The notes beneath the pieces are model-generated. The model saw only the letters and a program-made list of their open reading frames with translations, did no database searches and was not told the origin of the DNA. This document shows positions 19,303-42,327 of a stretch of DNA of 43,639 bases, piece after piece. A program made the translations under genes and the position numbers. This stretch comes from a plasmid, in sequence record CP102852.1; one strand, written 5' to 3'. How positions within the stretch are numbered: the stretch's first letter is position 1; each line of letters begins with the position of its first letter.

Positions 19303-19504
19303 ATATCAAAAAAACTAGCAAATCTCCCAGGTTCAGGGATTATCTTGCTAGTTTCTATCGCTTCTTGTGATAATGACCATGGAATAATTTCTTATGAGAA
19401 CCAATATTAGCAGCAACGAGTACTAAATCTTGATTGCTAACTTTATAATGCTGCTTTATAAGTTGGAGTTGGGACCAAGGTCGATAAAATTTTGAAAACT
19501 AATA

Positions 19505-20437
19505 GTGAAGATAAGGGTTATGACGCAGCCGGTAAAATGGTCCAAAATACCTTTGGAAAGCGAGCGGGTGCATGATATGTTTAAACTTACGTATGACCAA
19601 GTAAGACAATTTATAAAAAAATCGGTACTATATGATATGCGATCATATGTTGAATCTGGGCTAGGAGCAAGGATTATCAGCCTATTAGTAGCCACTTTCT
19701 TCATGATCCCTTTAGTTATGATAGTTGGAATTGGTACTACTATATCATTGAATAATTTATTTGGGATTAACATTCCGTTATTATCAAAGATTTTTGTACC
19801 TATATTTATTATTATAGGGTCTTTATCAGAATTAGGTTTTCTAATATCCGTGTTTATTCCAAGAAAGAATATTGCTGAATTTGGTCTTAGAAGTGATATC
19901 ATCTGGTCTCCGCTTATATTTGGAATGATATTTCTTGTTGTACCATTAGGTGTTGGTTCATTGATATATAGTTGTGGTTATACTGTGTTTTTGATACAAA
20001 CAATCGTAATATTGCTATATTTAGTTTTTAAGATTAGTACGTTAGGAAATAAGCGTGAAACCAAAAAAACGGCTTATAGAAGGTTTATAAGCTGGTTTAA
20101 CCTAGGTCATACAATGATTATCTTAATAGCCATGGATGCTGCACTTATCATAATTAATCTATTTACAAATAAGGTACCACTTGGATTATCTTTAATCAGT
20201 ATGATCTATAGTATCTTTATGCCTTTTATGATTTTATTCAATTTTTATATGTTTGGTAAGATTTATAAGGAAATTTACGTAGTTAAGTATGCTCGTCAAT
20301 TTCAATATGATTGGAAAATTCCCGATAAAGAATGGTGGTTTACGGCCAAAAGGGCAGCGAAACATCCACGGGTTTACCCGCCAGTAGAGGAGGAAACAAA
20401 GGAACCGACACCAAAAGAGGAAAATAAGCATGGATGA
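19505..20437 (+). CDS. hypothetical integral membrane protein (about 6 TM)
   Basis: 310 aa with six hydrophobic segments. There is no RBS before either the GTG at 19505 or the ATG at 19520. The paralog at 41077-41913 differs by an in-frame TAA. Confidence 0.55.
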   Translation: MKIRVMTQPVKWSKIPLESERVHDMFKLTYDQVRQFIKKSVLYDMRSYVESGLGARIISLLVATFFMIPLVMIVGIGTTISLNNLFGINIPLLSKIFVPIFIIIGSLSELGFLISVFIPRKNIAEFGLRSDIIWSPLIFGMIFLVVPLGVGSLIYSCGYTVFLIQTIVILLYLVFKISTLGNKRETKKTAYRRFISWFNLGHTMIILIAMDAALIIINLFTNKVPLGLSLISMIYSIFMPFMILFNFYMFGKIYKEIYVVKYARQFQYDWKIPDKEWWFTAKRAAKHPRVYPPVEEETKEPTPKEENKHG

Positions 20438-20672
20438 TAACGGATCTAATTTTTCGTATAAAACCTATTTATGGGGAATTATCGGATGTATAATCTTTGC
20501 TTTGATTTACACACCACTAGTTTGGCTACCAACCATAAGAGTTCGGTCCCAAACTGGTGAAGGACTTAATAGCACTGGCTTTTGGATCATTAATTGTATT
20601 GGTGTCGCGCCCTTTATTGCCATTTACGGGCTCATAAAAGTAGTAATTAAGAAATGGTATAAAGAGAAATGA
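20430..20672 (+). CDS. hypothetical small two-TM membrane protein
   Basis: 80 aa. Its start overlaps the stop of the upstream gene (ATGGATGA). The paralog at 40731-40979 is only about 70% identical at the protein level. Confidence 0.5.
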   Translation: MDDNGSNFSYKTYLWGIIGCIIFALIYTPLVWLPTIRVRSQTGEGLNSTGFWIINCIGVAPFIAIYGLIKVVIKKWYKEK

Positions 20673-21016
20673 GGTAAGTATATGGATTCAAAAACACAAA
20701 TCATTGAACAATACTAGAAGGCTCTTTACAAAGTTCTACTTTTCGACTTTCGATTAACTTACACAAATCGTCTTCCAATAAATAATTTAGAAGATCATTT
20801 CCTATTCTTTCTCCAAAGTGGAAATTTCGCTCCGAGAAATCTAAGCAACAGGGTACAGTGGTTTGATTTACTTTACAAAACTTGCTGAATATATTTTTCC
20901 CTTTTTCAGCAAAGGAATAGTTAACTTTATCAGAAGTGAGGATTAGATATTTAGCCTAGTTAAATATGGTTGAATCTGTACGCCAGATAACGTACGATAT
21001 TACTGAGGTGATGAGA

Positions 21017-21301
21017 ATGGCAAGAATTGAAGCTCGAATTGACGGAACTATTAAAAGTAAAGCCAAAGACGTATTAGCTAACCATGGTCTAACAATTTCT
21101 GATTTTATGCGCATGACATTAACAACAGTTGCTCATGATGGTTTACCTAAATATTATTCAATCCCTAATCGGCAGTTAAAAAATTCGATTCAAGAAGTTA
21201 TTGATGATCTATCTGGAAAAGAAAAGCTACCCGGAGCCCGTAACCTTAAAGAATTAGATCAATTGCTTAGCTCCGATGACGCATTGGAGTCTTCAAAATA
21301 A
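21017..21301 (+). CDS. dinJ: RelB/DinJ-family antitoxin (second copy)
   Basis: MARIEARIDGTIKSKAKDVLANHGLTISDFMRMTLTTVAHDGLP. GAGGTG lies 6 nt upstream of the ATG at 21017. Confidence 0.7.
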   Translation: MARIEARIDGTIKSKAKDVLANHGLTISDFMRMTLTTVAHDGLPKYYSIPNRQLKNSIQEVIDDLSGKEKLPGARNLKELDQLLSSDDALESSK

Positions 21302-21512
21302 ATGGCGAGAGTAATTAAATATACCAAAGCTTTTAAAAAAACAGTTTAAAAAGCGGCGCCAAGACCCCAAGTGGCGTTCAATATTTAAAAGTTCACTACC
21401 TCAAGAGCTTGATGATCAAAAGCGGAGTCCTTGGAAATATATTATTCAGTGCTTAATTGAAGATAAAACCATTCCAGATTATTTTTATCCGCATACTTTA
21501 GAAGGTGTTACA
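21302..21512 (+). pseudogene. yafQ: yafQ-like toxin gene, frameshifted and disrupted by insertion
   Basis: The gene starts MARVIKYTKAFKKTV*. An A7 run here (A6 in copy B) introduces a stop. Homology to YafQ continues to ...DYFYPHALEG and then breaks at the junction with the GC-rich cassette. Confidence 0.6.
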
Positions 21513-22139
21513 ATGGAAAAGCAAGAAACGACAAGAAAGAAAAAAAGGTTTGATATGAAAAGGTCTTTCAGGCGGATTTCCGCTGTCATAGCAACGATGG
21601 CTTTCACGACAGGTCTGGCCGCCTGCGGTTCCTCCCAGTCGACTGCCCCATCGGCGAACAAAGCCACTTCCTCCGTCACTGCCCCCCAGGGCTGGAAGAA
21701 GTTCACGTCCAAGGATCTGGGCTATTCCGTCTATTTCCCGGGCGTTCCGGAGAAGGACACCTATAAGGATCCCACCGGCGCTTATGCCCGCTATTCGACG
21801 GTCAATGACAAGGATCACATCAACTACGCTGTGTCCGTCACCAAATTCACTCGGAAGCAAGTCGAGGACTCCAAGGGGTTCAATGACGCGCAGAAACGTA
21901 AGGTCTTGACCAATGTCGCTCGTCTTCTGCAGATTGACAAGTATTCCTTCACCACCGTGGACGGGCATATGGCCATTTCCTACACCGGTCACGATAGCGA
22001 GGACCCCTCGGTGATCATGCGTCGAGAGGTCGTTTACTCGTCCGCTGGCATCTATGGCCTCGAATCCTTTGGAACTTCCAGCTCGGAATACAAGCAGTTC
22101 GTCGATACCTTCCGGCTTTCCGAAGATACGCAAGAATGA
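21513..22139 (+). CDS. lipoprotein of unknown function on a GC-rich foreign cassette
   Basis: The likely start is the ATG at 21555 (MKRSFRRISAVIATMAFTTGLAAC), preceded by AAAGG. It has a signal peptide with an L-A-A-C lipobox. The base composition is markedly GC-rich compared with the flanks. Copy B is near-identical. Confidence 0.6.
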   Translation: MEKQETTRKKKRFDMKRSFRRISAVIATMAFTTGLAACGSSQSTAPSANKATSSVTAPQGWKKFTSKDLGYSVYFPGVPEKDTYKDPTGAYARYSTVNDKDHINYAVSVTKFTRKQVEDSKGFNDAQKRKVLTNVARLLQIDKYSFTTVDGHMAISYTGHDSEDPSVIMRREVVYSSAGIYGLESFGTSSSEYKQFVDTFRLSEDTQE

Positions 22140-22152
22140 AAGGAGGGCTTCC

Positions 22153-22235
22153 ATGATTTGCCACTGGCTCTACCTACTCCCAGGGGACGCCCACCCCGGA
22201 TTGGATGGCTCCCGTCATGGGAGTCGTGATCGGTC
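22153..22235 (+). pseudogene. small membrane protein gene of the GC-rich cassette, frameshifted and truncated in copy A
   Basis: AAGGAGGG lies before the ATG. Copy A reads ATGATTTGCC against ATGATTTTCGCC in copy B. Homology to copy B ends at 22235. Confidence 0.4.
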
Positions 22236-22407
22236 GGGAGATCAATTAATTTAAAGTATGTTGTTACTAGGGGTTGCCAAAAATCTGTGGTTGGGTTGAA
22301 TCCGTCATAATCAATGATAATTTTGGTGAATTCAATTACATCTGTCAGGTTATGTTTCATTAAATCAAAATCACTTGTCCTATCCATATCGCCAGAGTTT
22401 ACAGTTA

Positions 22408-23118
22408 TATTGTGTACTACGGTTATAGTATGGTCAAGTTTACTACTGGCGATATGACTAGTCTTGGTATTATAAGGTTAGTTATGTTCAGTAATGATTA
22501 TCAAAAGAAGGAGATGATTTCTTATGATTGAGAAAGAAAAAGTTTTAAGCGATGCACCAAAGGTTCTAAATTCTGATAACAATCCTTGGGAAGTTGCTGT
22601 TGAAGGAGATTCGATTATTGGTACATGGAAATGGATGGATGCCCGGTTTTTCACTGAGGGTGGAATCTCCGATGAGGACAAAGATTTTACTTTTACAGTC
22701 ACTTTGAAAGATAACGGGAAATGGAAGGAAATTGATAGCACTTCTAGTAAGACATCAAGTATTAGGATGCATAACGGTAAACTATCTTTCAGTAAAGACA
22801 TCTCCTTTTCTAAGGGAAAGACTTATCAGAAAAGTATTTCTTTTGGTATTGGACAGGACAAGAAGAGCGGTAAAGTTGGAATTGTTGAATCTAAGTTAGA
22901 TACTTCAATCATTAAAAAGTCGATTCGAGATTATTTGAAACAATGTGGCTGGAAGAAAGCTGGACTATTTGGATAGGAAATTATATGGTTCACGTGATGT
23001 AATACTGTTAGCAACAGGACTAAAGTTACTATTGCATAATATCAAAAGGCCCGTTACCTCGTGGGGAAGGTAGCGGGCTTTTTGAGAACAGGCAAAAGAA
23101 AAGCCATGCTAATCAATA
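22408..23118. repeat. 710-bp direct repeat, copy 2
   Basis: See the entry for 9690-10402. The 19-bp inverted repeat present in copy 1 is degenerate here. Confidence 0.85.
22524..22976 (+). CDS. hypothetical 150-aa protein (paralog of 9807-10259)
   Basis: Near-identical ORF with the same RBS. Confidence 0.6.
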   Translation: MIEKEKVLSDAPKVLNSDNNPWEVAVEGDSIIGTWKWMDARFFTEGGISDEDKDFTFTVTLKDNGKWKEIDSTSSKTSSIRMHNGKLSFSKDISFSKGKTYQKSISFGIGQDKKSGKVGIVESKLDTSIIKKSIRDYLKQCGWKKAGLFG

Positions 23119-23119
23119 C

Positions 23120-23183
23120 GTACAATACCCCTTAGGGTTGACACTTTAAATAATAAAAGTGTGAATCCTAAGGGGTATTGTAC
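23120..23183. repeat. 64-bp near-perfect palindrome (28-bp arms, 8-nt loop)
   Basis: GTACAATACCCCTTAGGGTTGACACTTT aaataata AAAGTGTGAATCCTAAGGGGTATTGTAC, with 26 of 28 arm positions complementary. It abuts the end of repeat copy 2. Confidence 0.7.
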
Positions 23184-23503
23184 GACGATAATCATTCTAG
23201 AATTACATTTTGATGGTCATAATGGCGATCATTTATTGGTTTTAATATCGAACTTTTATCATTAAATTTATAGTGTATGTGGAAAACAAGTGTGTGCTAA
23301 AATTAAACCTAATTATAAAAAATATAGTCCCCTTCAAATTTTATTTGAAAATATTAATGGGAGCTAAAACTGACCCACAATCTGGTTAATATGGTGGTCG
23401 GTAAAAAAGTTAAGTTAGTTTAACTAGAAAGTTAATAGGTGCATGATATGTTTATTTTGCTGCTCATAAAAAAACGGTTTTTAATTTACCTGACATATAA
23501 GTC

Positions 23504-23712
23504 TCATCTTTTTATATTAAGCTTTTTGCGATATCTGATAAAGGTCGTCCGCTTAATCCCGGTATTACGAGCCACATCTACATCACTCATGCCCGCCTGA
23601 TAAAGTTTAAAAGCATGTTGCAACCGGGGATCATCTTTGGCATATTGAGGCTTCCGACCATGATATTTGCCTTGTTGTTTAGCCAGGGCAGTTATTATTC
23701 GTGCGTTTGGGT
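23504..23712 (-). pseudogene. C-terminal (HTH-domain) fragment of a serine recombinase
   Basis: ...ALAKQQGKYHGRKPQYAKDDPRLQHAFKLYQAGMSDVDVARNTGIKRTTFIRYRKKLNIKR matches residues 135-196 or so of the intact resolvase at 30094-30684. It includes the same roughly 100-bp 3' flank. Confidence 0.7.
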
Positions 23713-24279
23713 AATTTCCTTGTAGCGGTAACAAGAAATTTCGTGATCGTTGACCAGCCCAGCAGCTTGCATAAAAGAATATACAACGACCGGACCCGTA
23801 AACTTAAAACCATCTGACTTCATTTGATTACTAATTTGCCTAGCAGTTTGATCGGTCCTGGGTAGATCTTTATGTGATTGATAATGATGTTGAATTGGTG
23901 TCCACTTGATGAAGTCCCAGAGGTACTGATTGAATGATTTATTTTGAGTTTCGAGTGAATCAATAATCCTTGCATTAGAAATAATTGCTAAGATTTTCCG
24001 TCGGTTTCGAATAATTTTGTCATTAGTCAACAATTGGGGGAGTTGGGAGTCTAGCATTTGAACTGTTCGATAATCAAAATTTTCAAATGCAGCCTTCAAA
24101 GCCTGCCGCTTATTGAGCACCGTCTGCCAACTTAATCCGGCTTGCATAATTTCTAAAGACAAGAGTTCGAATAGCATTCGGTTATTATGGCAGGGCCGAC
24201 CCCACTCATGATCGTGATAGTCTCTTAGAAGAGCATTATCCGTATTAGCCCATGAACATCTGGTTAGATTTGTCTTCAA
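23695..24279 (-). CDS. tag: DNA-3-methyladenine glycosylase I
   Basis: RCSWANTDNALLRDYHDHEWGRP...LSLEIMQAGLSWQTVLNKR...FTGPVVVYSFMQAAGLVNDH closely parallels E. coli Tag (RCGWVSQDPLYIAYHDNEWG...QQAGLSW...YSFMQACGLVNDH). Confidence 0.85.
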   Translation of the reverse strand: MKTNLTRCSWANTDNALLRDYHDHEWGRPCHNNRMLFELLSLEIMQAGLSWQTVLNKRQALKAAFENFDYRTVQMLDSQLPQLLTNDKIIRNRRKILAIISNARIIDSLETQNKSFNQYLWDFIKWTPIQHHYQSHKDLPRTDQTARQISNQMKSDGFKFTGPVVVYSFMQAAGLVNDHEISCYRYKEITQTHE

Positions 24280-24871
24280 GAAAATCCTCCTTAAACCAAC
24301 GTGCCAAAGGAATATTAATTCTTATCTGACGCTTACTAGTTAATGCAACCACATCGTTTTTAACCAATTGCGATAGTAGTCTGGTTCCCAACGCTCCCGA
24401 TAAGTGGGGTAGGCGTTCCGAAAAATCAATACACGTCTGCAAACGCGTTTGCTGGACTGATTCCACTAGAAAATGGCTAAATTGACGTTTCCCTTGAGCA
24501 GTTAAAACATAGTTATCCAAAGATAGTCTCTCAACTAAGTGGTTTTGGTTTAACCATTGGAATAGTTGCACCCCCGCCTGTCCAGCTAAATGATGATAAC
24601 AAGTTCTGGCCTGACCAATTTGAATAGCTAATTTCCGCTGAGACAGCTTATCCCACGTTTTTTTTCCCAGATCAGATGTCGATTTGGTTACGTCAGTTAA
24701 TTTGAAGTAACTTCTGCCGGCGAAGAAACGTCGCTCTATTAATCGGTCCTTCTCTAATTTTTTAAGCTGTTGTTGGCCAATCAGATGGTCAATATTAGTC
24801 GCTTTGCAAATCTCATTGAGAGTCAAAAACCTCTGGCAACTCAATGTTGATAGTATTTTTTCAGTTAACAT
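24245..24871 (-). CDS. putative winged-helix transcriptional regulator (family uncertain)
   Basis: 208 aa. The N-terminal LTLNEICKATNIDHLIGQQQLKKLEKDRLIERR looks like a wHTH. The 3' end overlaps the tag start by 35 nt. Confidence 0.45.
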   Translation of the reverse strand: MLTEKILSTLSCQRFLTLNEICKATNIDHLIGQQQLKKLEKDRLIERRFFAGRSYFKLTDVTKSTSDLGKKTWDKLSQRKLAIQIGQARTCYHHLAGQAGVQLFQWLNQNHLVERLSLDNYVLTAQGKRQFSHFLVESVQQTRLQTCIDFSERLPHLSGALGTRLLSQLVKNDVVALTSKRQIRINIPLARWFKEDFLEDKSNQMFMG

Positions 24872-24891
24872 GTTTAAAATCCTCCTTTAAA

Positions 24892-25992
24892 TTAATTTTC
24901 TTGATTTAAATATGAATAGAACCCGGGAATGAGATCGGCAATTAAGCTGGTCGGGGAGTACAATACAAATTTACGGTCCTTTTGAGTTTTGACTAACCTA
25001 GCTTGTTTTAGAAGCTTTAAATGATGGGACACTGTGGATGCACTCATGGTCATAATCTGACCTAATGATTGAGTTGTTAGGGGTTCATCAGCTAAATACT
25101 TCAGCATTCGCAATCGAACCGGATCACTTAAAGCCTTAAATACACTGACTAACTCATCTGTATTCACCTTAGTTTTTATTTTATTAAGAGAATCATAGGT
25201 AATGGTTACTCCGCCGGCAAAACGATCAACAAAAAGATGCGGCCAAACAAAATAACTTGGTACCAATAAAATGACATCGTGGTTTCCTAAATCAATTTGC
25301 TGGTCAAATGGTTTAGTGACGATTAGCTGATCTTGTTGCCAATGCAATCGATCAACCTCCAGATGATTAACAAGCTTGACAAAGCCATTATCTCGTAAAT
25401 ATTTTGACTGATCTTTAATTTCATTAACCAGAAATTGGCTAAGAGAACGATCTACCCAAGTTTGATCAAAAACTCGGTTTCGATAATCTGCAATAAATGC
25501 AAATAGCTGCTCATAAACCTTGGCAGGATTAACGCGCAAGTCTTTTAAGAGTTGGTGTGGATTAGTTGGTTGATAATCTCGCCACTCCAAGCTTTTAGCC
25601 ATTTTAGGAATAAATTGATTTTCGCGCTGCTGAGCAACTTGTACCAAGCTTTTGACGACAACTTGTGGATCCTCGTGAGATAAAAATTGTTTTAAATTGT
25701 CGATTTCATCATCTAAGTTCGCGGTTAGCTGTTCAAAGTTATTAAAAAATATTGGCGGCGTTCCTAATTCATAAATTAATTCAAAATAGTGGAGTTGATT
25801 AAAAAAATCGTCGGTTAAGGATCGTTGTGCTTCCAGTGTCCAATCGATGTTCATACCATGGTGGCGGGGGTTCAATAGCACATGTAGGCTTCTAAACAAT
25901 TCATTTAGCGGAGAATATACAAACTGAATTCGTTGAGTAAGGGTTTCATTGGTTTGACAGGCATAGTTGCCGAACTTAATTTTAATAGTCAT
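24892..25992 (-). CDS. ArsR-family transcriptional regulator with a large N-terminal domain
   Basis: The C-terminal FKALSDPVRLRMLKYLADEPLTTQSLGQIMTMSASTVSHHLKLLKQARLV is an ArsR HTH. It is divergent from the MFS transporter gene. Confidence 0.7.
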   Translation of the reverse strand: MTIKIKFGNYACQTNETLTQRIQFVYSPLNELFRSLHVLLNPRHHGMNIDWTLEAQRSLTDDFFNQLHYFELIYELGTPPIFFNNFEQLTANLDDEIDNLKQFLSHEDPQVVVKSLVQVAQQRENQFIPKMAKSLEWRDYQPTNPHQLLKDLRVNPAKVYEQLFAFIADYRNRVFDQTWVDRSLSQFLVNEIKDQSKYLRDNGFVKLVNHLEVDRLHWQQDQLIVTKPFDQQIDLGNHDVILLVPSYFVWPHLFVDRFAGGVTITYDSLNKIKTKVNTDELVSVFKALSDPVRLRMLKYLADEPLTTQSLGQIMTMSASTVSHHLKLLKQARLVKTQKDRKFVLYSPTSLIADLIPGFYSYLNQEN

Positions 25993-26096
25993 AAATGTTG
26001 CCTTTCGATTTCAAAATTTTAGAATCGTTTGATTGTACTTAAAAACAATTCTATCATGAAATTACGGTAATTCAAGGGAGGTCCTTTTTATGATTA

Positions 26097-27482
26097 ATGA
26101 TAGTAGGTGTGTGTATAATGACTAAGCGAACTAAGAATCACTTAATCATTCTTATTGCTGGCATGGGAATGTTACTTTCGACATTAGATACTGGAATTAT
26201 TAATGTTGCGTTACCTTTTTTGCAGCATCAGTTTCACTCGACTACCAGTATTGCTGCTCTAAGTGTAGTTGGCTATACAACTAGCTTAGCAGTGTTGATT
26301 TTGCCCTTCGGTTATCTAAGCGATCAAATTGGTAAGCTCAAAGTTTCTTTGACCGGATTAATAATATTTGGCTTCGGATCGATTTTATGTGGGTTAGCGA
26401 CTAATATTTCGGGTCTGATTATCTTTCGGATTATTCAAGGGATTGGCGCAGCTGCTTTACAAGCAACATCAGCTGCTCTAATCACCACGCTTATGGATCA
26501 CGACCGTGTCTCCAAGGCTCTGGGGATACTAGGAATCATGATTGGCTTGGGTCCTATTCTAGGACCATCAATTGGCGGTTTCTTTTTAGCTTTAAATGTA
26601 TGGCGATTAATTTTCTGGATCAATGTGCCTTTCGCAATATTAGGATTGATTTGTAATTACTTATTGATTCACCAAATTCATGAAAATACTGCGAAGCAAA
26701 GATTTGATTTATCGGGTAGCATTATTAATGCCACAATGATTATTTGTTTATTGGCTGGTTTTTCGCTTCTCAGTAAGGCAACTAGTTTCAAGCTGGCTGT
26801 TCCACTAATTATTTGCGGATTAGTTTTAGGGGTATGCTTCTATACATTTGAATTTAGACTAAATGAGCCTCTAGTAGACTTCCGAACTCTTTCTAAAGCC
26901 CCCAAGATCTGGCTATATCTGCTACAAACCGCAGTCTTTGGATTTGCATCGGCAATTGTCTTTTTAATTCCGCCCTTTCTTTTCGAAAAGGTTATGCATA
27001 TTGACGTTGGAGTAACGGGACTATTAGTCCTAGGTGCACCGGTTGGATTAGTCATTTTCTCACGGGTTTCTGGTAGTCAAAATGACGGTTCCAAAAATCA
27101 GAAGTTTAGCCGTTGGGGTCTCGTGGTTATTGCACTAGCCTTTGCTGGTTTGCTTTTAGTTGGTGTTCAATGGCCGCCAATTGTTGTAACTAGTTGCCTG
27201 TTCCTATTTGGTGTCGGTGGAGGTTATTTTCAGCCAGCTAATATTGGCAATATCATGCAATCAGGTTCCGCTAACAGCCAAGGTACAATCGGTTCACTAC
27301 AACGAATGGTGCAAAACATCGCCATTGCAAGTGGTACAGCTATAGGATCAACCTTGATTAATTTAACCTCCCCTAATCTCTTCCTCGGGATTCAAGTAAA
27401 TTGGTATTTGGCTTTATTCGTAGTAGTCATCATTATCATTGCTGACATTTTAATAAATTTTTTATATTCCAAAAACATTTAA
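26097..27482 (+). CDS. MFS transporter, 14-TM drug:H+ antiporter (DHA2-like)
   Basis: 461 aa. Alternative start at 26118, MTKRTK. It has the MFS signature LSDQIGKLK and a hydrophobic profile consistent with an EmrB/QacA-type pump. Confidence 0.8.
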   Translation: MIVGVCIMTKRTKNHLIILIAGMGMLLSTLDTGIINVALPFLQHQFHSTTSIAALSVVGYTTSLAVLILPFGYLSDQIGKLKVSLTGLIIFGFGSILCGLATNISGLIIFRIIQGIGAAALQATSAALITTLMDHDRVSKALGILGIMIGLGPILGPSIGGFFLALNVWRLIFWINVPFAILGLICNYLLIHQIHENTAKQRFDLSGSIINATMIICLLAGFSLLSKATSFKLAVPLIICGLVLGVCFYTFEFRLNEPLVDFRTLSKAPKIWLYLLQTAVFGFASAIVFLIPPFLFEKVMHIDVGVTGLLVLGAPVGLVIFSRVSGSQNDGSKNQKFSRWGLVVIALAFAGLLLVGVQWPPIVVTSCLFLFGVGGGYFQPANIGNIMQSGSANSQGTIGSLQRMVQNIAIASGTAIGSTLINLTSPNLFLGIQVNWYLALFVVVIIIIADILINFLYSKNI

Positions 27483-34503: not shown

Positions 34504-34853
34504 AATCTAATTAAAAACATTGTACGACTGTCTTGATAAAAGTCAAGTCGACTTTAATAGTTTTTGCGGTTGTGACTTGGTCTTTTTTATTCTTGAAGCT
34601 TATGTTTTGTTTAATACGGAATATTTTGGAGTAAGCTGGCTACCGAGTCTAAACGTGCAAAGAGAAGCGGGTCCCGGCCATATAAGCCTTTCAATCTAAT
34701 ATTCCAAAAACAGGAATGGGATTGACTTTAGATGATCCTATAGATGCAAATGAACTGTTTATCCTTATTCATGACTTAAGAAAGTATGTTAAAGTACACA
34801 AATCTCAAAGCGTTAATATTTACGTTCAAAAATGTTGTTATAGCAACATTTAG

Positions 34854-35389: not shown

Positions 35390-35482
35390 GACTTATATGT
35401 CAGGTAAATTAAAAACGTTTTTTATGAGCAGCAAAACTATTTTGAGAAAATGATAGGAATCATGTTAGAGTGGTATCATTTA

Positions 35483-35722
35483 TTAATCGGAATGCAAACA
35501 ACTGTGCTCAACATAGTTCTGGAAGTGTTTGTTGTTCCATTCTTCGATTGCATGCTTAGTAGCTTTCGATTTATCGTACACGTTGAACTGCGTTTCATTA
35601 AACACAATATCTTGATTACTGTGATTAATCTTTTCATCATGTTCAACATGCTTCTGAATGCCGGAATATCCATTAGTATCTTTCGCTTGTAAGTCAGTTG
35701 TTACGGTACATTTTATTGCCAT
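35483..35722 (-). pseudogene. MobV-family (Mob_Pre, pMV158 MobM-like) relaxase, N-terminal 79-codon fragment
   Basis: MAIKCTVTTDLQAKDTNGYSGIQKHVEHDEKINHSNQDI parallels MobM M..VAR.QK.KAGNLGG..KHNER....HSNKDI. The ORF is truncated after 79 aa. Confidence 0.55.
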
Positions 35723-35805
35723 CTTTTATGCCTCCGTAAGTTATTATCTTACAAGTAATTATAACATGTTTGCAGTACAGCAAAGTGGATAAGATATCCA
35801 ATTTA

Positions 35806-35936
35806 CTAGCTCCCTAGTTAAAATGGAGTAACCCCATTTTGACTAGGGAGCTCTGCCGAGGGCATTAGGATGGCGGTTTTGCTCTTCTTCAAACGCATTT
35901 CATTTTGACTAGGGAGCTCTGCCGAGGGCATTAGGA
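35806..35936. other. oriT-like inverted repeat plus a 36-bp direct repeat upstream of the MobV fragment
   Basis: CTAGCTCCCTAGTTAAAATGG and CCATTTTGACTAGGGAGCTC form an inverted repeat around a 7-nt loop. CATTTTGACTAGGGAGCTCTGCCGAGGGCATTAGGA occurs twice, 66 bp apart (30-bp spacer). Confidence 0.45.
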
Positions 35937-36019
35937 ACACATTTCCTAATAACCATTAAATTTTATTTTCAAGATTGTATTTGAAAATAAAATGTTACCT
36001 TTTACCCTAGAAAGGTAAC

Positions 36020-36062
36020 ACCAAAAGAAAAATTCCCAATGCATTTAGCAAAGGGAATTTTT
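36020..36062. terminator. bidirectional terminator downstream of pncA
   Basis: GAAAAATTCCC ...15 nt... GGGAATTTTTTT. Confidence 0.5.
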
Positions 36063-36106
36063 TTGTAATTAATTCGTGGTTTTTTTGATAATCATTTGAA
36101 AGTGAA

Positions 36107-36655
36107 TTATCGAATTGTGGCCCCTAATACGTTTTTAAAATGATTCATCGCCCATTCAGCACCAGCTGGTGAGAACGTGGCCACGGCTGCTTGTGGAATC
36201 ACAATGTGGTAATCCAGGTTGTAGGCACTGATTGCGGTGTGGAGGACACAAATATCAGTGCAGACACCAGCAATCCAGACTTCATCAATCCGCCGTTCCC
36301 GCAGGTAGTTATCCAAATTGGTGTTTTGGAAGGAGGAGTAACGGTTCTTATTGAATTTGTAGACATGGGAATCGTCATGATGTTGATCAAACCAGCTGCC
36401 GACTTGGCCGTATAGTTTCTGACCGGTCGTCCCAATAATATTATGGGCCGGATATAGTTTGGTTTCTGGATTGAATGGGTCATTAAGCCGGTGACCATCA
36501 GTGGGAAAGATCACATAATCATGCTGGCTTAAGAATTGATCGGCTAACCGCATAATTTCTGGGGCCAACGTCTGCGCTGGCTTGCCAACCGTTAGTGATC
36601 CCTTATCAGCCACAAAGTCGTTTGTATAGTCAATAATTAAGAGCGCTTTAGCCAT
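36107..36655 (-). CDS. pncA: nicotinamidase / pyrazinamidase (isochorismatase family)
   Basis: ALLIIDYTNDF...IAGVCTDICVLHTAISAYNLDY, including the catalytic Cys region. It follows pncB by 1 nt. Confidence 0.8.
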   Translation of the reverse strand: MAKALLIIDYTNDFVADKGSLTVGKPAQTLAPEIMRLADQFLSQHDYVIFPTDGHRLNDPFNPETKLYPAHNIIGTTGQKLYGQVGSWFDQHHDDSHVYKFNKNRYSSFQNTNLDNYLRERRIDEVWIAGVCTDICVLHTAISAYNLDYHIVIPQAAVATFSPAGAEWAMNHFKNVLGATIR

Positions 36656-36656
36656 C

Positions 36657-38096
36657 TTAATGTTCCTCCATAAATTGAGCTTTAGTAATTAACTGTTCTT
36701 GCAATTCAGCCAATGTAGCTGTTAAGTAAACTGGGTACCGATCGGGGTTAACTAACCGTTTTGTGGCTTCTGGTAATTCTGCTACTTGATCCATTGAGAA
36801 TTGCTGAATCTTAAAGAGATCATTTTCGATTGGGGAAGCATTGGAACCCAGATATTCTTGCATCAATGGCTTAGCATTAAAGTTAGTCAGAACTTGGCTG
36901 ACGTGCGTGGCTGCCGAATTAGCATTAACCACTTTCAATGGAGCCGTGATGTGCTCATCAGCCAGGGCAATCACATCGGCGATCGCTTGATGAAGGTTAT
37001 CTTGCCGGTAAATCCGGTAAACTTGCTTATTACCAGGCAGGGTGATCTTTTCTCTGCTATCACTAACCTTAATTTTTGGGATCCATTGATCATTAATCTT
37101 TTCTTCGGCGAGCTTATAAACGCCACTTAATACCGGACTGGAGGAACTGGTAATTAAACGTTCCCCAATCCCAAAGTTATCAATTGGAGCTCCTTCATCC
37201 AACAACGACTTAACTACATGCGCATCAAGGGCATTTGAAGCTGTAATCTTTGCCTTGGGGAAGCCAGCATCATCGAGCATCTTCCGGGCTTTGATGGCTA
37301 ATTGCGAAATGTCACCGGAATCGATCCGGATCCCGACTGGTTGGTGCCCTTGAGCGCTAACTTGCTTGAAGACCCGAATCGCGTTCGGCACTCCTGACTT
37401 CAAGACATCATAAGTATCAACGAGCAAGGAAACTTTGTCAGGATAAACCTTGGCCCAAGCTTGAAAGGCACTTAATTCATCAGAGAAGCTTTCGACCCAG
37501 GCATGTGCCATTGTGCCGGCCGCGGGAATATTAAATTGACTGGCTGCTTGTAAGTTCGACGTGCTGGTACAACCGCCGATCACCGCGGCTCGCGCCCCAT
37601 ACGTGGCGGCATCAGGGCCTTGCGCCCGCCGCGCGCCAAATTCCATAATTGGTCGGCCTTGAGCGGCATGGTTGATTTGCCAAGACTTCGTCGCAATTAA
37701 TGATTGATGGTTAATGATGTTTAGAATAAAGGTTTCTAACAGCTGGGCTTCAATCAACGGTCCACTAATTGAAATAATTGGTTCCCGTGGGAAAACAGGG
37801 GTTCCTTCTGGTAAAGCTTTAATCGAGCAGTGATTTTTAATCTTGCTCAGGTAATCTAAAAACTCGGGAGTAAATTCATTCAGGGAGGTCAGGTATTCAA
37901 TATTCTCCTTAGTGAAATGCCAATTTTGAACTTGTTCTACCACTTGCTGGAGACCAGCGACAATGACAAAACTACCGTTGTCGGGAACCCGGCGGTAAAA
38001 GACGTCGAAGCGAGCTTGTCGATCATGGGGTAGGGTAGCGTAGTACCCATTGGCCATGGAAAATTCATATAAGTCGGTTAATAGTTGTAGATTCAT
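36657..38096 (-). CDS. pncB: nicotinate phosphoribosyltransferase
   Basis: 479 aa. The N-terminal LTDLYEFSMANGYY is the PncB hallmark. Confidence 0.85.
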   Translation of the reverse strand: MNLQLLTDLYEFSMANGYYATLPHDRQARFDVFYRRVPDNGSFVIVAGLQQVVEQVQNWHFTKENIEYLTSLNEFTPEFLDYLSKIKNHCSIKALPEGTPVFPREPIISISGPLIEAQLLETFILNIINHQSLIATKSWQINHAAQGRPIMEFGARRAQGPDAATYGARAAVIGGCTSTSNLQAASQFNIPAAGTMAHAWVESFSDELSAFQAWAKVYPDKVSLLVDTYDVLKSGVPNAIRVFKQVSAQGHQPVGIRIDSGDISQLAIKARKMLDDAGFPKAKITASNALDAHVVKSLLDEGAPIDNFGIGERLITSSSSPVLSGVYKLAEEKINDQWIPKIKVSDSREKITLPGNKQVYRIYRQDNLHQAIADVIALADEHITAPLKVVNANSAATHVSQVLTNFNAKPLMQEYLGSNASPIENDLFKIQQFSMDQVAELPEATKRLVNPDRYPVYLTATLAELQEQLITKAQFMEEH

Positions 38097-38145
38097 CTTA
38101 AATGCTTCCTTTTAAGTAAAAATTACTTTAATTTGGCTAAAAATA

Positions 38146-38183
38146 AAAGTATGGTTAACTTTTAAAAGTATGGTTAACTTTTA
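38146..38183. promoter_or_regulatory. two exactly tandem 19-bp repeats (each an AAAAGT-n7-ACTTTT palindrome) upstream of pncB
   Basis: AAAAGTATGGTTAACTTTT occurs twice in direct tandem. It lies between the nrtR stop and the pncB start. Confidence 0.5.
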
Positions 38184-38230
38184 TTTACGTCTAGTATAAA
38201 TATTTTGCAGCAAAATGCAAATGATGCCCT

Positions 38231-38935
38231 TTAGTTAAGTTGGTAGAGCTTTGGTGGCCGCCCAGAATGGTTCAAAGTGGCGGCCCCGACTTCTTTGAAG
38301 AGGTGGTTGTGAGTTCTCTTAAAGTTGGAATTATCAATCTTGTCAATTGTCGTACCTAAGAAAGCCGCAAAGACTTCGCGCGCTTGGCGCAGGGTAAAGG
38401 TATTACCTAAGATCCGAAGAATTTGGGGTTGATAGTCCAGCTTGTTTTTAATCCGATTAATGGCGGTGGTAATGATTTGAATATGATCAAAGACCAGGTG
38501 ACCGGCGGGACTTAGGATAATCTCCTGTTGGTCATGGGTGATCACATAGTTGCCCTGATCTTTATCAAGCACAAACCATTGGGCATCTGTGGCTCCATAC
38601 CCTGGATGCAATTTTGGGGTTGATGGTAAATAGGTCATATAGGCGAGTGCCAGTGCCCGAGTTCCCGTAACCCGCTTGGGATCTGTAAAGGTGGCCAGTT
38701 GTTCGGTTGAATTCATCGGAACTTGCAGGCCAATTTTATCGTCAATTAGACGAATACAGGCCGCGTCGGCACTCTCTTTACTCCGCAAGAGGGTTTCGGG
38801 GAGGGCCCAATGTCCCTTTAGAGGTTCATCTGCCCGCTTAATCAATAGTAATTGTGGTCGGTGTAATTCAGTATTAAAACTCCAAATAACGTTGGTGATG
38901 GTCACCAATGGCCGGGCAATAATTTCACTATCCAA
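38231..38935 (-). CDS. nrtR: Nudix-related transcriptional regulator of NAD metabolism (NrtR-like)
   Basis: 234 aa. The N-terminal Nudix-like fold has a degenerate Nudix box (GHWALPETLL...ESADAACIRLIDDKIG). The C-terminus looks like a winged HTH. TTG start 7 nt after GGGAGGAG. It is first in an operon with pncB and pncA. Confidence 0.6.
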   Translation of the reverse strand: MDSEIIARPLVTITNVIWSFNTELHRPQLLLIKRADEPLKGHWALPETLLRSKESADAACIRLIDDKIGLQVPMNSTEQLATFTDPKRVTGTRALALAYMTYLPSTPKLHPGYGATDAQWFVLDKDQGNYVITHDQQEIILSPAGHLVFDHIQIITTAINRIKNKLDYQPQILRILGNTFTLRQAREVFAAFLGTTIDKIDNSNFKRTHNHLFKEVGAATLNHSGRPPKLYQLN

Positions 38936-39062
38936 TTGACGCTCCTCCCTTCATAATTGTTAACTCAACTCTATTTTAGCATTTCTCGGCCACTAGTAAT
39001 TGCCCAGTTGCTTTAAATCATGTTAAGGTTAGTTGCTTTTTCAAGCGTTCATAGCGGTGTTC

Positions 39063-39314
39063 CTAATTGTAGGTGGTCTCGATCATTTCTAAAGGAGAGT
39101 GGCTTCGGTCACAGAATAAAATCCCAATGTGATTGAGAATGCAATATTCAATCACTCGCTCCGATAGATAACACTTTCTATTATCAAACACCAATGTACC
39201 AATATCATCAAAGGTCAGACATTTCTTTTCCTTTGTCTTGATATTTGAAAATTTTAGTCCTTCTTTAGTGACACCAACAAAACATTCATTCTCCACATAA
39301 ACTATATTCTTCAC
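39063..39314 (-). pseudogene. orphan Cas1-like N-terminal fragment (83 codons)
   Basis: The pattern VYVENECF...K..L.F.......K..LTFDDIGTLVFDNRK.YLSERVIEYCILNHIGILFCDRSHSP mirrors the N-terminal beta-sandwich of type II Cas1 (for example ...IPLSDISII......ITL..LSAL...NIALVVCDNEHLP). It is truncated and no array or other cas genes accompany it. Confidence 0.35.
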
Positions 39315-39547
39315 CCTTTACCCCTCCCGAAGTAAGGACCTGCCGATAAATCAACATCCTACTATTTCATTTGGTGTTAATTTCTTTCTCTCGAATATAA
39401 CCTATGCGTCAATTATAAAGTCTGGTCTACTGCAACGAGCTTTCTTGGCCCCTAAATCTAAAGAGAGCGTGTATTTAAATCCAAGGATTTCGATACACGC
39501 TCTCGCTTTTTACTACGTCTCCTTCTAACAGAGATTAGAAATAAAAA

Positions 39548-39590
39548 CAAAAATCCACCCGGCGCGACGAAGATGGCGGGTGGAAGGGGA
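39548..39590 (-). terminator. rho-independent terminator at the end of the GC-rich cassette (copy B)
   Basis: On the minus strand, CCACCCGCC ...loop... GCCGGGTGG followed by ATTTTTGTTTTTATTT. Confidence 0.45.
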
Positions 39591-39604
39591 AGGCCGGATT
39601 GGGC

Positions 39605-39879
39605 CTATCCCAGGGAAAGCAAGGCCTTGTAAAGGTCGTTGACCTTCGTGGGCATGTAGTCGTTCATCATCATGATTTGGTGGGAGTCCACGACTTCATC
39701 GGTGTACAGGCTTCGCAGGCCCACCATACCCTGGAGGGTGTTGGCCAGGATTTGATGCCGAAGATGGCGGCGACGATCCCGGCGATGATGGCCAGACCGA
39801 TCACGACCCCCATGACGGGAGCCATCCAATCCGGGGCGGGCGTCCCCTGGGAGTAGGTAGAGCCAGTGGCGAAAATCAT
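39605..39879 (-). pseudogene. small membrane protein gene of the GC-rich cassette, full length in copy B but with an internal frameshift
   Basis: AAGGAGGG precedes the ATG. MIFATGSTYSQGTPAPDWMAPVMGVVIGLAIIAGIVAAIFGIK then shifts frame to ...ILANTLQGMVGLRSLYTDEVVDSHQIMMMNDYMPTKVNDLYKALLSLG. The shift occurs at an AAA run (GGCATCAAATCC). Confidence 0.45.
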
Positions 39880-39892
39880 GGAGGCCCTCCTT

Positions 39893-40519
39893 TCATTCTT
39901 GCGTATCTTCGGAAAGCCGGAAGGTATCGACGAACTGCTTGTATTCCGAGCTGGAAGTTCCAAAGGATTCGAGGCCATAGAGGCCAGCGGACGAGTAAAC
40001 GACCTCTCGACGCATGATCACCGAGGAGTCCTCACTATCGCGACCGGTGTAGGAAATGGCCATATGCCCGTCCACGGTGGTGAAGGAATACTTGTCAATC
40101 TGCAGAAGACGAGCGACATTGGTCAAGACCTTACGTTTCTGCGCGTCATTGAACCCCTTGGAGTCCTCGACTTGCTTCCGAGTGAATTTGGTGACGGACA
40201 CAGCGTAGTTGATGTGATCCTTGTCATTGACCGTCGAATAGCGGGCATAAGCGCCGGTGGGATCCTTATAGGTGTCCTTCTCCGGAACGCCCGGGAAATA
40301 GACGGAATAGCCCAGATCCTTGGACGTGAACTTCTTCCAGCCCTGGGGGGCAGTGACGGAGGAAGTGGCTTTGTTCGCCGATGGGGCAGTCGACTGGGAG
40401 GAACCGCAGGCGGCCAGACCTGTCGTGAAAGCCATCGTTGCTATGACAGCGGAAATCCGCCTGAAAGACCTTTTCATATCAAACCTTTTTTTCTTTCTTG
40501 TCGTTTCTTGTTTTTCCAT
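39893..40519 (-). CDS. lipoprotein (copy B), in frame with the upstream yafQ fragment
   Basis: Same L-A-A-C lipobox protein as in copy A, with a few substitutions. GC-rich composition. Confidence 0.6.
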   Translation of the reverse strand: MEKQETTRKKKRFDMKRSFRRISAVIATMAFTTGLAACGSSQSTAPSANKATSSVTAPQGWKKFTSKDLGYSVYFPGVPEKDTYKDPTGAYARYSTVNDKDHINYAVSVTKFTRKQVEDSKGFNDAQKRKVLTNVARLLQIDKYSFTTVDGHMAISYTGRDSEDSSVIMRREVVYSSAGLYGLESFGTSSSEYKQFVDTFRLSEDTQE

Positions 40520-40729
40520 TGTAACACCTTCTAAAGCATGCGGATAAAAATAATCTGGAATGGTTTTATCTTCAATTAAACACTGAATAATATATTTCCA
40601 AGGACTCCGCTTTTGATCATCAAACTCTTGAGGTAGTGAACTTTTAAATATTGAACGCCACTTGGGGTCTTGGCGCCGCTTTTTGAACTGTTTTTTAAAA
40701 GTTTTGGTATATTTAATTACTTTTGCCAT
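40520..40729 (-). pseudogene. yafQ: yafQ-like toxin gene, N-terminal 70 codons, disrupted by the cassette (copy B, no frameshift)
   Basis: MAKVIKYTKTFKKQFKKRRQDPKW...DYFYPHALEGV is fused in frame to the lipoprotein ORF. It lacks the C-terminal catalytic half. Confidence 0.55.
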
Positions 40730-40730
40730 C

Positions 40731-40979
40731 TTACTTACTTCTTTTCTCTTTGCGCCATTTTTTAAACATTGCCTTAATTAATCCGTAAACTGCGATGAGA
40801 GGCATTACGCCAATACAATTGACAATCCAAAAGAGTGTGCTATTTCCAGCTCCCGTTTGTAGGCGGTTCTTGATAATTGGTAACCAAACAAGGGGTATAT
40901 AAATCAACTCGAAAACTATAAAGCCGACAATTCCCCATAAATAGGCTTTATACGAGAAATTAGATTCGTCATCATCCAT
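40731..40979 (-). CDS. hypothetical small two-TM membrane protein (diverged paralog)
   Basis: 82 aa. Its start overlaps the stop of the upstream gene. Confidence 0.5.
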   Translation of the reverse strand: MDDDESNFSYKAYLWGIVGFIVFELIYIPLVWLPIIKNRLQTGAGNSTLFWIVNCIGVMPLIAVYGLIKAMFKKWRKEKRSK

Positions 40980-41076
40980 GCTTATTTCCCTCCTTTGGCG
41001 TTGGTTCCTTTGTTCCTTCCTCTACTGGTGGGTAAACCCGCGGATGTTTCGCCGCTGTTTCAGCTGTAAACCACCA

Positions 41077-41913
41077 TTATTCGTCAGGAATTTTCCAATC
41101 ATATTGAAATTGACGAGCATACTTAACTACGTAAATTTCCTTATAAATCTTACCAAACATATAAAAATTGAATAAAATCATAAAAGGCATAAAGATACTA
41201 TAGATCATACTGATTAAAGATAATCCAAGTGGTACCTTATTTGTAAATAGATTAATTATGATCAGTGCAGCATCCATGGCTATTAAGATAATCATTGTAT
41301 GACCTAGGTTAAACCAGCTTATAAACCTTCTATAAGCCGTTTTTTTGGTTTCACGCTTATTTCCTAACGTACTAATCTTAAAAACTAAATATAGCAATAT
41401 TACGATTGTTTGTATCAAAAACACAGTATAACCATAACTATATATCAATGAACCAACACCTAATGGTACAACAAGAAATATCATTCCAAATATAAGCGGA
41501 GACCAGATGATATCACTTCTAAGACCAAATTCAGCAATATTCTTTCTTGGAATAAACACGGATATTAGAAAACCTAATTCTGATAAAGACCCTATAATAA
41601 TAAATATAGGTACAAAAATCTTTGATAATAACGGAATGTTAATCCCAAATAAATTATTCAATGATATAGTAGTACCAATTCCAACTATCATAACTAAAGG
41701 GATCATGAAGAAAGTGGCTACTAATAGGCTGATAATCCTTGCTCCTAGCCCAGATTCAACATATGATCGCATATCATATAGTACCGACTTTTTTATAAAT
41801 TGTCTTACTTGGTTATACGTAAGTTTAAACATATCATGCACCTGCCCACTTTCTAAATAATTCAAAGGTATTTTGGGCCATTTTACCGGCTGCGTCATAA
41901 CCCTTACCTTCAC
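41077..41913 (-). CDS. hypothetical 6-TM membrane protein (copy B, ends at an in-frame TAA relative to copy A)
   Basis: 278 aa. The C-terminal 32 codons found in copy A are still present in frame after the TAA. Confidence 0.5.
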   Translation of the reverse strand: MKVRVMTQPVKWPKIPLNYLESGQVHDMFKLTYNQVRQFIKKSVLYDMRSYVESGLGARIISLLVATFFMIPLVMIVGIGTTISLNNLFGINIPLLSKIFVPIFIIIGSLSELGFLISVFIPRKNIAEFGLRSDIIWSPLIFGMIFLVVPLGVGSLIYSYGYTVFLIQTIVILLYLVFKISTLGNKRETKKTAYRRFISWFNLGHTMIILIAMDAALIIINLFTNKVPLGLSLISMIYSIFMPFMILFNFYMFGKIYKEIYVVKYARQFQYDWKIPDE

Positions 41914-42327
41914 TATTAGTTTTCAAAATTTTATCGACCTTGGTCCCAACTCCAACTTAAAGCACCTACGAAAAATCCATTCCCTGTACCAGATATTACT
42001 TATATCCCAGAAAATACACTGCTAATTGAAGTACCATCTACCGTACCTTAAAGTGCCCGTCTGGTACTCTTGATAGCGTTAACACCAGTATAAACTACCA
42101 AATGGCCAAGATTCCTGCGTATTTCAGAATCACTCATTATCATCATTCGTTACTTCTAAGTTTTTCCTATCCTTAAATTCCAGTTTTATATGCCTTGTGG
42201 TAGTTACATATATTATTATATTAATGGCTAAAGTTAATATCATTAAGTTAAGAATTTATCAGTTGGTAAGTCATGATTAATTAATAATTTTCAAATTACA
42301 TAGTTATAAAAGAGTATGGTTTTATTT

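Follow-up and report, generated by a model that had tools for sequence, protein, structure and literature searches.

The subject of this report is a 43,639-nt stretch of plasmid record CP102852.1 (hereafter the window, in whose numbering all coordinates are given), which carries two copies of a composite module of membrane-protein, DinJ-YafQ, and lipoprotein genes in opposite orientation. We consider it quite probable that copy A (19452-22240, plus strand) and copy B (39790-41964, minus strand) are two pre-existing alleles of this module, designated alpha and beta, that were joined by recombination between plasmids and are now undergoing homologous flip-flop inversion together with gene conversion. 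The phenomenon is ordinary plasmid mosaicism of a well-known kind, here in a newly documented instance; a literature search found no paper that describes the module or reports inversion among plasmids of this family.

Anatomy of the inverted module

A repeat search of the window returned four colinear inverted pairs (I7, I1, I2, and I9), and blastn alignment of copy A to the reverse complement of copy B gave two blocks, 19452-20680 against 41964-40732 (91.7% identity over 1,239 columns) and 21296-22235 against 40736-39795 (97.9% over 943 columns). These results bear out an earlier, sequence-only reading of this DNA, in which the same set of genes was proposed to lie in opposite orientation at two places; the similarity is not limited to short motifs and runs colinearly for ~2.2 kb at 92-98% identity, far above chance. 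That reading located the module correctly but misplaced its outer ends, as homology begins at ~19452/19459 instead of 19436 and ends at ~22240. Likewise, it rightly noted an extra stretch in copy A but overestimated its size, which is 615 bp (20681-21295) and not ~640; the insert holds a regulator-gene remnant and a dinJ gene.

From its 5' end, copy A consists of the gene for a six-transmembrane (6-TM) protein, the alpha allele of a gene for a small two-transmembrane (2-TM) protein, the regulator remnant, dinJ, a yafQ remnant, a lipoprotein gene, and a truncated gene for another small transmembrane protein (small-TM gene). Copy B consists of a 6-TM gene ended by a premature TAA, the beta allele of the 2-TM gene, the yafQ remnant, and the lipoprotein gene, and takes in the start of the small-TM gene, here intact and extending to 39670. 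Two parts of the repeat are near-identical between the copies, with long runs of perfect identity, and are candidate substrates for recombination: the 5' part of the 6-TM gene (19459-20322 in copy A, plus strand; perfect runs of 52, 352, 171, and 176 bp) and the yafQ remnant with the lipoprotein gene (21296-22240, plus strand; longest perfect run, 469 bp).

The finer details of the sequence-only reading agreed with our measurements as well. The copy A spacer contains a protein-like frame without a start methionine (found on the minus strand, at ~20716-20960), yafQ has a run of seven adenines (A7, 21335-21341) in copy A against six (A6) in copy B, and the 6-TM gene of copy B has an in-frame TAA at 41079-41077, beyond which its former frame continues to 40981. 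The 2-TM proteins, put at about 70% identity, are 72.2% identical in amino acid sequence, and the lipoprotein genes are nearly identical (5 differences in 624 nucleotides; 98.6% amino acid identity). The statement that the copies are not homogenised holds for the centre of the repeat.

Uneven divergence between the copies

Differences between the copies are clustered. In 100-bp windows, copies A and B show only 4 differences in the 736 bp of 19587-20322, but divergence is ~14% at 20323-20463, ~30% at 20481-20680, and ~2% beyond the indel, with sharp boundaries at 20323 and 20680. Synonymous divergence (dS) and the ratio of nonsynonymous to synonymous divergence (dN/dS, or omega) were calculated by region for copy A versus copy B using the Nei-Gojobori method. 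In consecutive parts of the repeat, dS was 0.023 in the body of the 6-TM gene (omega 0.41), 0.96 in its tail (omega 0.07), 1.54 in the 2-TM gene (omega 0.12), and 0.014 in the lipoprotein gene (omega 0.45). Synonymous divergence therefore differs 40- to 110-fold between neighbouring segments, which do not share a single duplication date. In addition, purifying selection has been strong, and both cores therefore are, or recently were, functional alleles.

Both alleles exist elsewhere. Typing of 20 loci at every site that discriminates copy A from copy B resolved two deep haplotypes, alpha and beta. Beta is present as a single copy in at least nine related plasmids or contigs. The alpha unit of 6-TM and 2-TM genes occurs singly, next to a MarR regulator gene, in two metagenome scaffolds (loci L013 and L017), and the alpha part comprising the 2-TM gene, spacer, and dinJ occurs singly in plasmid pEB01-2. 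Exact look-up of the 2-TM proteins gave 340 blocks of the collection for alpha and 332 for beta, representing several contexts. In a five-way alignment, copy A equals plasmid pHL70_1 up to ~20480, follows the pEB01-2 allele (96-98% identity) from there through the 2-TM gene, spacer, and dinJ, and is back to the B/pHL70 type at 22146-22240. The copy A core is thus 96-98% identical to pEB01-2 compared to 67-74% to copy B, while copy B, which represents the common beta haplotype, is 100% identical to pHL70_1 outside 20323-20463. Hence, the copies are not each other's closest relatives. We had considered 20323-20463 of copy B as a conversion patch from a third allele. This was rejected, as the 20-locus typing showed the interval to be normal beta haplotype and pHL70_1 to be the recombinant, alpha-like over exactly that stretch.

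The apparent lesions of the two copies have a similar distribution. The TAA of the 6-TM gene results from a single G-to-T change within the beta haplotype, present in 5 of the 11 beta copies typed, and the A7 frameshift of yafQ is found in all alpha copies of this lineage and is absent from pEB01-2. Both are polymorphisms common to several samples and not private decay.

According to the sequence-only reading, the copies arose by in-place inverted duplication of one module and then diverged by independent mutation. Such a history could accommodate the ends of copy A (19459-20480 and 22146-22240), which are of pHL70/B type, since the 5' part of its 6-TM gene could be a copy of the resident gene; it could also accommodate the junction between copy A and its left flank, a unique scar found only in this two-copy lineage. 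It is, however, contradicted by a dS that is nowhere near uniform along the supposedly duplicated unit and passes from ~0.02 to 1.5 at sharp boundaries (range across the repeat, 0.014-1.54), by an alpha core that is 96-98% identical to that of pEB01-2 and whose exact 2-TM protein occurs in single-copy contexts, and by a beta core that is the allele of the single-copy plasmids and contigs described above. Moreover, the right boundary of copy A (22240) is common to plasmids of other genera, and copy A lies inside a replaced segment of 13 kb (see below). We therefore judge duplication and divergence within this plasmid to be very unlikely. The comparison with related plasmids did reveal single-copy relatives, as that reading had anticipated, but they carry two pre-existing alleles and not one ancestral copy that was later duplicated. 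Consequently, the uneven identity between these repeat copies reflects the mixing of alleles and not differing rates of decay, and the dN/dS comparison proposed in that reading would mislead if their mosaic structure were overlooked.

A hybrid plasmid backbone

Both ends of the window are adjacent in Lactobacillus gasseri DS2831 p1, which indicates that the window is a complete, circular 43.6-kb plasmid of the L. gasseri group (rep_cluster_707, with MOBQ relatives). The plasmids typed as rep_cluster_707 by MOB-suite were pHL70_1 (NZ_CP072658.1), DS2831 p1 (NZ_CP146881.1), pEB01-2 (NZ_CP008840.1), and plca36 (NC_011352.1). These relatives and CP161922.1 have in common with the window, at 96-99.9% identity, a backbone of repA, parA, mobQ, zeta/RelB, and DinJ-YafQ, as well as cargo blocks for nicotinamide adenine dinucleotide (NAD) salvage, an energy-coupling factor (ECF) transporter, Tag-DUF5937-MFS, and the module itself. 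They differ in the number of modules: pHL70_1, DS2831 p1, and pEB01-2 have one copy and plca36 has the lipoprotein part only, whereas the window, CP161922.1, and several scaffolds have two copies in inverted orientation.

The window is itself a hybrid. Positions 30128-43639 together with 1-16996 are 99-99.9% identical to pHL70_1 and DS2831 p1, in which a single beta (copy-B-type) module lies in the same MarR/ABC-transporter and NAD-salvage context as copy B. The remaining 13.1-kb segment (16996-30128), which contains copy A, replaces 19.6 kb of the pHL70_1/DS2831-p1 backbone; one of its edges lies upstream of repA and close to it, and the other lies inside a serine-recombinase gene. Parts of this segment match pEB01-2, whose single module has the architecture of copy A. 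To the left of copy A, profile search and plasmid comparison showed an intact DinJ gene (18705-18992), an intact YafQ gene (18994-19302), and, after these, the remaining 3' part of another gene of the yafQ family, in convergent orientation (flank L1, 18705-19447, plus strand). The left junction of copy A cuts the 3' end of this last gene, which is intact in pEB01-2. In comparison, the right boundary is an old junction common to plasmids of several genera, and the right flank (20950-22500) is contiguous at 98% identity in a L. plantarum plasmid, with similar matches in other genera. The outer flank of copy B (L2, 41965-42807, minus strand) comprises the native upstream region of the 6-TM gene and the gene of a MarR regulator (42328-42807).

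Probable inversion and exchange between the copies

To describe orientation, the four unique flanks were named L1 (ParA-DinJ-YafQ), R1 (hyp150-Tag and onward to TetR-resolvase), R2 (small-TM gene, cas1 fragment, NUDIX, and onward), and L2 (MarR-ABC). The order in the window, L1-alpha-R1 ... R2-beta-L2, is referred to as form W and the flipped order as form I. Form W is present in the complete plasmid CP161922.1 (loci L012 and L023) and in independent metagenome scaffolds (L011, L014, L015, L040, and L016/L049), the last of which is one scaffold that extends without a gap from L1 across the whole of the intervening segment as far as the beginning of copy B. Form I is present in contig 13 (JARBWA010000013.1, assembly GCA_028882155.1; 41,569 bp), which was recovered as two loci, L045 and L010, with an identical overlap of 5,548 bp. 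At one end of this contig, L1 is followed by the 6-TM gene, the beta 2-TM gene, the yafQ remnant and lipoprotein gene, the small-TM gene, and R2; further on, L2 is followed by the 6-TM gene, the alpha 2-TM gene, dinJ, and eventually R1. Identity to the window is 99.2-99.8% across both module regions. Contig 13 starts at the equivalent of window position 39314. From its length, its end would be expected near 39227, in which case the contig would represent the flipped form as an essentially closed circle.

The exchange points were mapped from the discriminating sites. In contig 13, the switch from flank to module lies between 19458 and 19541 in both copies, marker 19511 being of the same type in both. 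A second crossover is seen in a sibling assembly (GCA_028882125.1, L026), where L1 is followed by an a-type 5' part of the 6-TM gene and then by beta, with the switch at 20330-20344. In the second near-identical segment, L027 passes from beta to the R1 flank at ~21991. There are also shorter exchanges within this segment: tracts of beta single-nucleotide polymorphisms (SNPs) occur in the alpha copies of L011 (21408-21521) and L016 (21408-22050), alpha SNPs occur in the beta copy of L022, and L023 also has an exchanged tract. Both orientation isomers are thus represented, form I by contig 13 and L026, and the proposal that the segment between the copies can be inverted by homologous recombination is supported at the level of assemblies.

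Since assemblers are well known to choose paths arbitrarily at inverted repeats that contain perfect runs of 350-470 bp, and since most of the supporting sequences are metagenome scaffolds or draft contigs, it was necessary to consider whether the second copy or the alternative orientation is an artefact of mis-joined repeats, with only one arrangement present in cells. For the existence of two copies, pure artefact is excluded, given the very different cores and the unique flanks on all four sides. For the isomer it is unlikely. The window orientation is that of a complete-level plasmid (CP161922.1) and of at least 6 independent scaffolds; in contig 13, the L1 flank joins b-type markers 80-170 bp away, within the range of a single read, and markers break the repeat at intervals of no more than 352 bp; and single-copy recombinants (pHL70_1, L027, and L013/L017) show allele exchange independently of how repeats are phased. 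Taken as a whole, an artefactual origin is improbable.

A programmed, site-specific switch of the shufflon or inverton type was also considered, in which a serine recombinase encoded between the copies flips the segment and so chooses the 2-TM allele and downstream genes that follow the MarR-side promoter. Two serine-recombinase genes do lie in the invertible segment (30094-30684, and 34943-35389, which is truncated), with a weak match to Mpi-family invertases (E = 5.7e-14, well below the cut-off). A neighbouring 3.6-kb ECF-transporter cassette does occur either way round, the junction lying at an inverted repeat of 122 nt, and the exchange in contig 13 falls in the outermost 52-82 bp of homology in both copies. 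Nevertheless, crossovers are not confined to short recombinase sites at the ends of the repeat, as they occupy different positions in contig 13, L026, and L027. The contig-13 crossover interval has no resemblance to the rest of the window, including the I5 repeat, beyond chance 10-13-mers. Single-copy relatives commonly carry the recombinase genes as part of their backbone, and promoter and terminator scans around both copies gave scores at the level of the shuffle background. Such a switch is therefore highly improbable.

Several points weigh against homologous inversion between two united alleles. The contig-13 isomer rests on assemblies of unverified sequencing technology, and the contig was read except for its last 8.6 kb. 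Between its two copies there are stretches of perfect identity of 352 and 323 bp, across which an assembler could have mis-phased the sequence, although this is not favoured, as markers flank each run. Its crossover lies within ~3-5% of the available substrate, the outermost part of the homology mentioned above, which would be unlikely for random homologous exchange. SNP mosaics inside the repeats of short-read metagenome assemblies could in part be consensus chimeras, the evidence for isomers comes from separate assemblies, none of which shows coexistence within one sample, and the ancestral orientation is suggested by a parsimony argument only.

With these points taken into account, we propose the following course of events for the two alleles. 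The module itself is an accretion of three parts, namely a MarR-associated pair of 6-TM and 2-TM membrane-protein genes, what is left of a DinJ-YafQ locus with its toxin gene severed after codon 69, and the GC-rich (guanine- and cytosine-rich) insert that cut it, bringing the lipoprotein and small-TM genes. The dinJ-bearing architecture of copy A (alpha) would be the older, and a 615-bp deletion would have removed dinJ and the regulator remnant from copy B. The two alleles, deeply diverged in their cores of 6-TM tail and 2-TM gene, may have been united in one replicon by recombination between related plasmids, presumably at the shared repA-proximal and resolvase regions. Thereafter, ~860 bp of the 6-TM gene and ~940 bp of yafQ remnant and lipoprotein gene could serve as substrates for general homologous recombination, probably of RecA type. 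Reciprocal crossovers would flip about half of the plasmid, and so change which core, alpha or beta, and which downstream genes follow the native MarR-side upstream region; non-reciprocal events would copy short SNP tracts from one copy to the other; and the very divergent core and the 615-bp indel would block homogenisation of the centre.

Flip-flop inversion by homologous recombination is known from the inverted repeats of plastid genomes and from inversions between inverted insertion-sequence or rRNA copies in bacterial replicons. The present case resembles these in that long, highly similar repeats lie inverted on a circular replicon, that both isomers are found, and that crossovers vary, with no dedicated site evident. 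It differs in that the repeats of the window are not homogenised, having a core of ~360 bp with 14-30% divergence and the 615-bp indel, in that they are different alleles from different plasmids, and in that the isomers are known from separate assemblies. In the R64 shufflon and in invertase-driven segments such as the Hin, Gin, and Mpi systems, as would be the case here, inversion swaps a variable 3' part behind a fixed 5' part, and the window also has serine-recombinase genes nearby. In contrast to those systems, however, the window lacks short conserved crossover sites, crossovers occur at varied places, and the repeats are kilobase-long coding sequences. The plasmids described here provide a naturally occurring pair of isomers in human-associated lactobacilli that could be used to measure rates of inversion and gene conversion. 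They are also a warning that the orientation given by short-read assemblies may be arbitrary in this common family of plasmids.

A second, smaller invertible segment lies between the copies. The 3.6-kb ECF-transporter cassette (30904-34776 with the repeat arms) is bounded by a 122-nt inverted repeat of 97% identity (30904-31025 and 34655-34776) beside the two serine-recombinase genes, which are themselves inverted with respect to each other and of which the first is full length. The cassette is in the opposite orientation in contig ERZ1742273 NODE_238 (L025), with the junction exactly at the repeat.

The 6-TM and 2-TM membrane-protein genes

The 6-TM gene of copy A is intact (19505-20437, plus strand) and encodes 310 aa from a GTG start, while that of copy B (41077-41913, minus strand; 278 aa) is ended by the TAA at codon 276. 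The most conserved part of the family, as judged from an alignment of homologues, is the C-terminal tail WWFTAKRAAKHPRVYPP, and it is exactly this tail that the TAA removes. The alpha 2-TM gene (20430-20672, plus strand; 80 aa) has a start that overlaps the 6-TM stop; the beta allele (40731-40979, minus strand) encodes 82 aa. Neither protein had a match in Pfam, NCBIfam, or PADLOC, the databases searched (PHROGs lay outside the search). A homologue search with the 6-TM protein returned only 38 clusters, none with a Pfam domain, and all homologues with a visible source were from Lactobacillaceae plasmids. A few of these clusters bear an automatic "beta-carotene 15,15'-monooxygenase" label, which our family searches did not support and which we rejected. 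The AlphaFold model of the 6-TM protein, built from a 27-sequence alignment, was a low-confidence helical bundle (predicted local distance difference test, pLDDT, 58; predicted template modelling score, pTM, 0.45) and too poor for fold searching. An exact-protein look-up of the truncated copy B 6-TM protein gave no match, probably because gene callers chose another start.

In L. salivarius plasmids, a 6-TM homologue of 28% identity precedes a small gene, after which come dinJ, the yafQ remnant, and the lipoprotein gene. The pairing of a 6-TM gene with a small gene thus appears to be old. Since the copy A architecture recurs around so distant a homologue, it would be the older of the two and the dinJ-less copy B a deletion. 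The pair constitutes a small family that lacks annotation and, among members of visible source, is restricted to plasmids of Lactobacillaceae. Its C-terminal motif is strikingly conserved, and it offers a modest lead for functional work.

Loss of the 6-TM tail has occurred in several independent ways in this plasmid lineage: by the beta TAA, by the same G-to-T change on alpha in CP161922.1 (L012), where the allele keeps its flanking alpha markers, and, in four scaffolds, by loss of a single base pair. The 6-TM gene of L040 is called as two separate ORFs (open reading frames). This recurrence may reflect relaxed constraint, or selection in two-copy plasmids. One might go further and suppose that the 6-TM tail and the 2-TM protein interact with allele-specific recognition, in an immunity- or toxin-like manner, that alpha and beta are selected specificity variants, that the inverted layout is a recombinational switch placing either core, with or without dinJ, behind the MarR-controlled region, and that tail disruptions reflect selection to silence one copy. 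We regard this functional scheme as very doubtful.

The DinJ-YafQ remnant and the lipoprotein insert

The frame without methionine in the copy A spacer is the C-terminal remnant of a regulator gene (20716-20960, minus strand), paralogous to the window regulator at 24245-24871 (minus strand; BLASTP E = 4e-13); by tblastn it also matches annotated regulators on other plasmids. Next to it lies the dinJ/relB antitoxin gene (21017-21301, plus strand; 94 aa, with a longer ORF from 20966), which is present in copy A only and whose product matches Pfam RelB (PF04221; 40.7 bits versus a cut-off of 22.4, E = 2e-10). Its TAA stop (21299-21301) abuts the ATG of the yafQ remnant at 21302, so that only in copy A does an antitoxin gene lie directly upstream of the toxin gene.

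The yafQ remnant of copy A (21302-21510, plus strand) holds the first 69 of 125 codons, and its A7 run puts a stop (21347-21349) after 15 codons. The copy B remnant (40523-40729, minus strand), with A6, remains open and continues in frame into the lipoprotein ORF. An intact relative in L. plantarum NZ_CP017960.1 is a 125-aa YafQ of 88% identity that passes the Pfam YafQ cut-off and lies behind a 94-aa DinJ. By comparison, the remnants cover residues 1-69 of 125 and reach 17.1 bits against a PF15738 cut-off of 30, over profile positions 3-56 of 88. The yafQ fragment is thus the remnant of a dead toxin gene. The module resembles a DinJ-YafQ type II toxin-antitoxin locus in that copy A has a RelB/DinJ gene directly followed by the 5' 55% of a YafQ-family gene. 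It differs in that both copies lack the C-terminal 56 residues of the toxin, copy A is also frameshifted, and copy B has no antitoxin gene, which makes it a remnant and no longer a functioning system; it is also to be distinguished from the separate, intact DinJ-YafQ pair just upstream of copy A (18705-19302).

At the point where yafQ is truncated, GC content jumps from ~34% to 52-56% and stays at this level across the lipoprotein and small-TM genes; hence it was a GC-rich insert that severed yafQ. The lipoprotein gene lies at 21513-22139 (plus strand) in copy A and at 39893-40519 (minus strand) in copy B. In both copies its translation begins with an N-terminal signal peptide that ends in a lipobox (LAAC) with its cysteine, MKRSFRRISAVIATMAFTTGLAAC, as read from the translations with no dedicated predictor. 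The products resemble the PsbP-like family PF18933 at 22.5 and 21.7 bits, below the cut-off of 27, and this is a resemblance only. In copy A, the lipoprotein gene is followed by the 5' remnant of the small-TM gene (22153-22240, plus strand), which has a 2-bp deletion and whose end is the right boundary of the repeat. In copy B, the gene is intact (39670-39879, minus strand), encodes a 69-aa protein with a single transmembrane segment, and has the repeat boundary (~39790) inside it.

The insert of lipoprotein and small-TM genes (21500-22250 and 39790-40520) stands out against a plasmid of 28-40% GC. Plasmids from at least six genera of Lactobacillaceae carry it at 97-98% identity, a distribution that suggests recent and wide horizontal spread. 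In many plasmids (L009, i.e., plca36 2684-2800; L030, L032, and L034), the 3' flank of DinJ-YafQ is joined to the lipoprotein gene 18 bp upstream of its ORF. The same join is found in two records of ~2 Mb (CP141798.1 and JBKTDA010000001.1) and represents another recombinant form of the same building blocks.

Other features of the plasmid

Three 54-nt direct repeats at 16006-16179, in the 5' part of the minus-strand repA ORF (15491-16639), look like origin iterons. The left edge of the replaced segment (16996) is ~360 bp beyond the repA start. The region of the hyp150 gene is directly repeated (9685-10402 and 22402-23118) at 96% identity and 12.7 kb apart. In the metagenome sequence 'Circular_plasmid_228' (31,123 bp; L053), LysM-hyp150 lies directly before Tag, and the sequence resembles the window minus those 12.7 kb; as such a loss would remove repA and mobQ, this sequence is the product of either a deletion or a collapsed assembly. 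Window positions 9184-10800 are absent from contig 13.

An 83-aa ORF at 39063-39314 (minus strand) corresponds to the N-terminal quarter of Cas1 (PADLOC Cas1_IIIa, E = 2.8e-26; NCBIfam type II Cas1, E = 1.3e-11). No further Cas-family match was present among the searched proteins neighbouring it. The fragment is conserved in pHL70_1-like plasmids, where it is annotated as 'hypothetical protein'. Finally, a gene for a Cna_B/LPXTG surface protein contains 270-bp tandem repeats (3166-5103), the copy number of which varies among relatives that are otherwise 99.9% identical.

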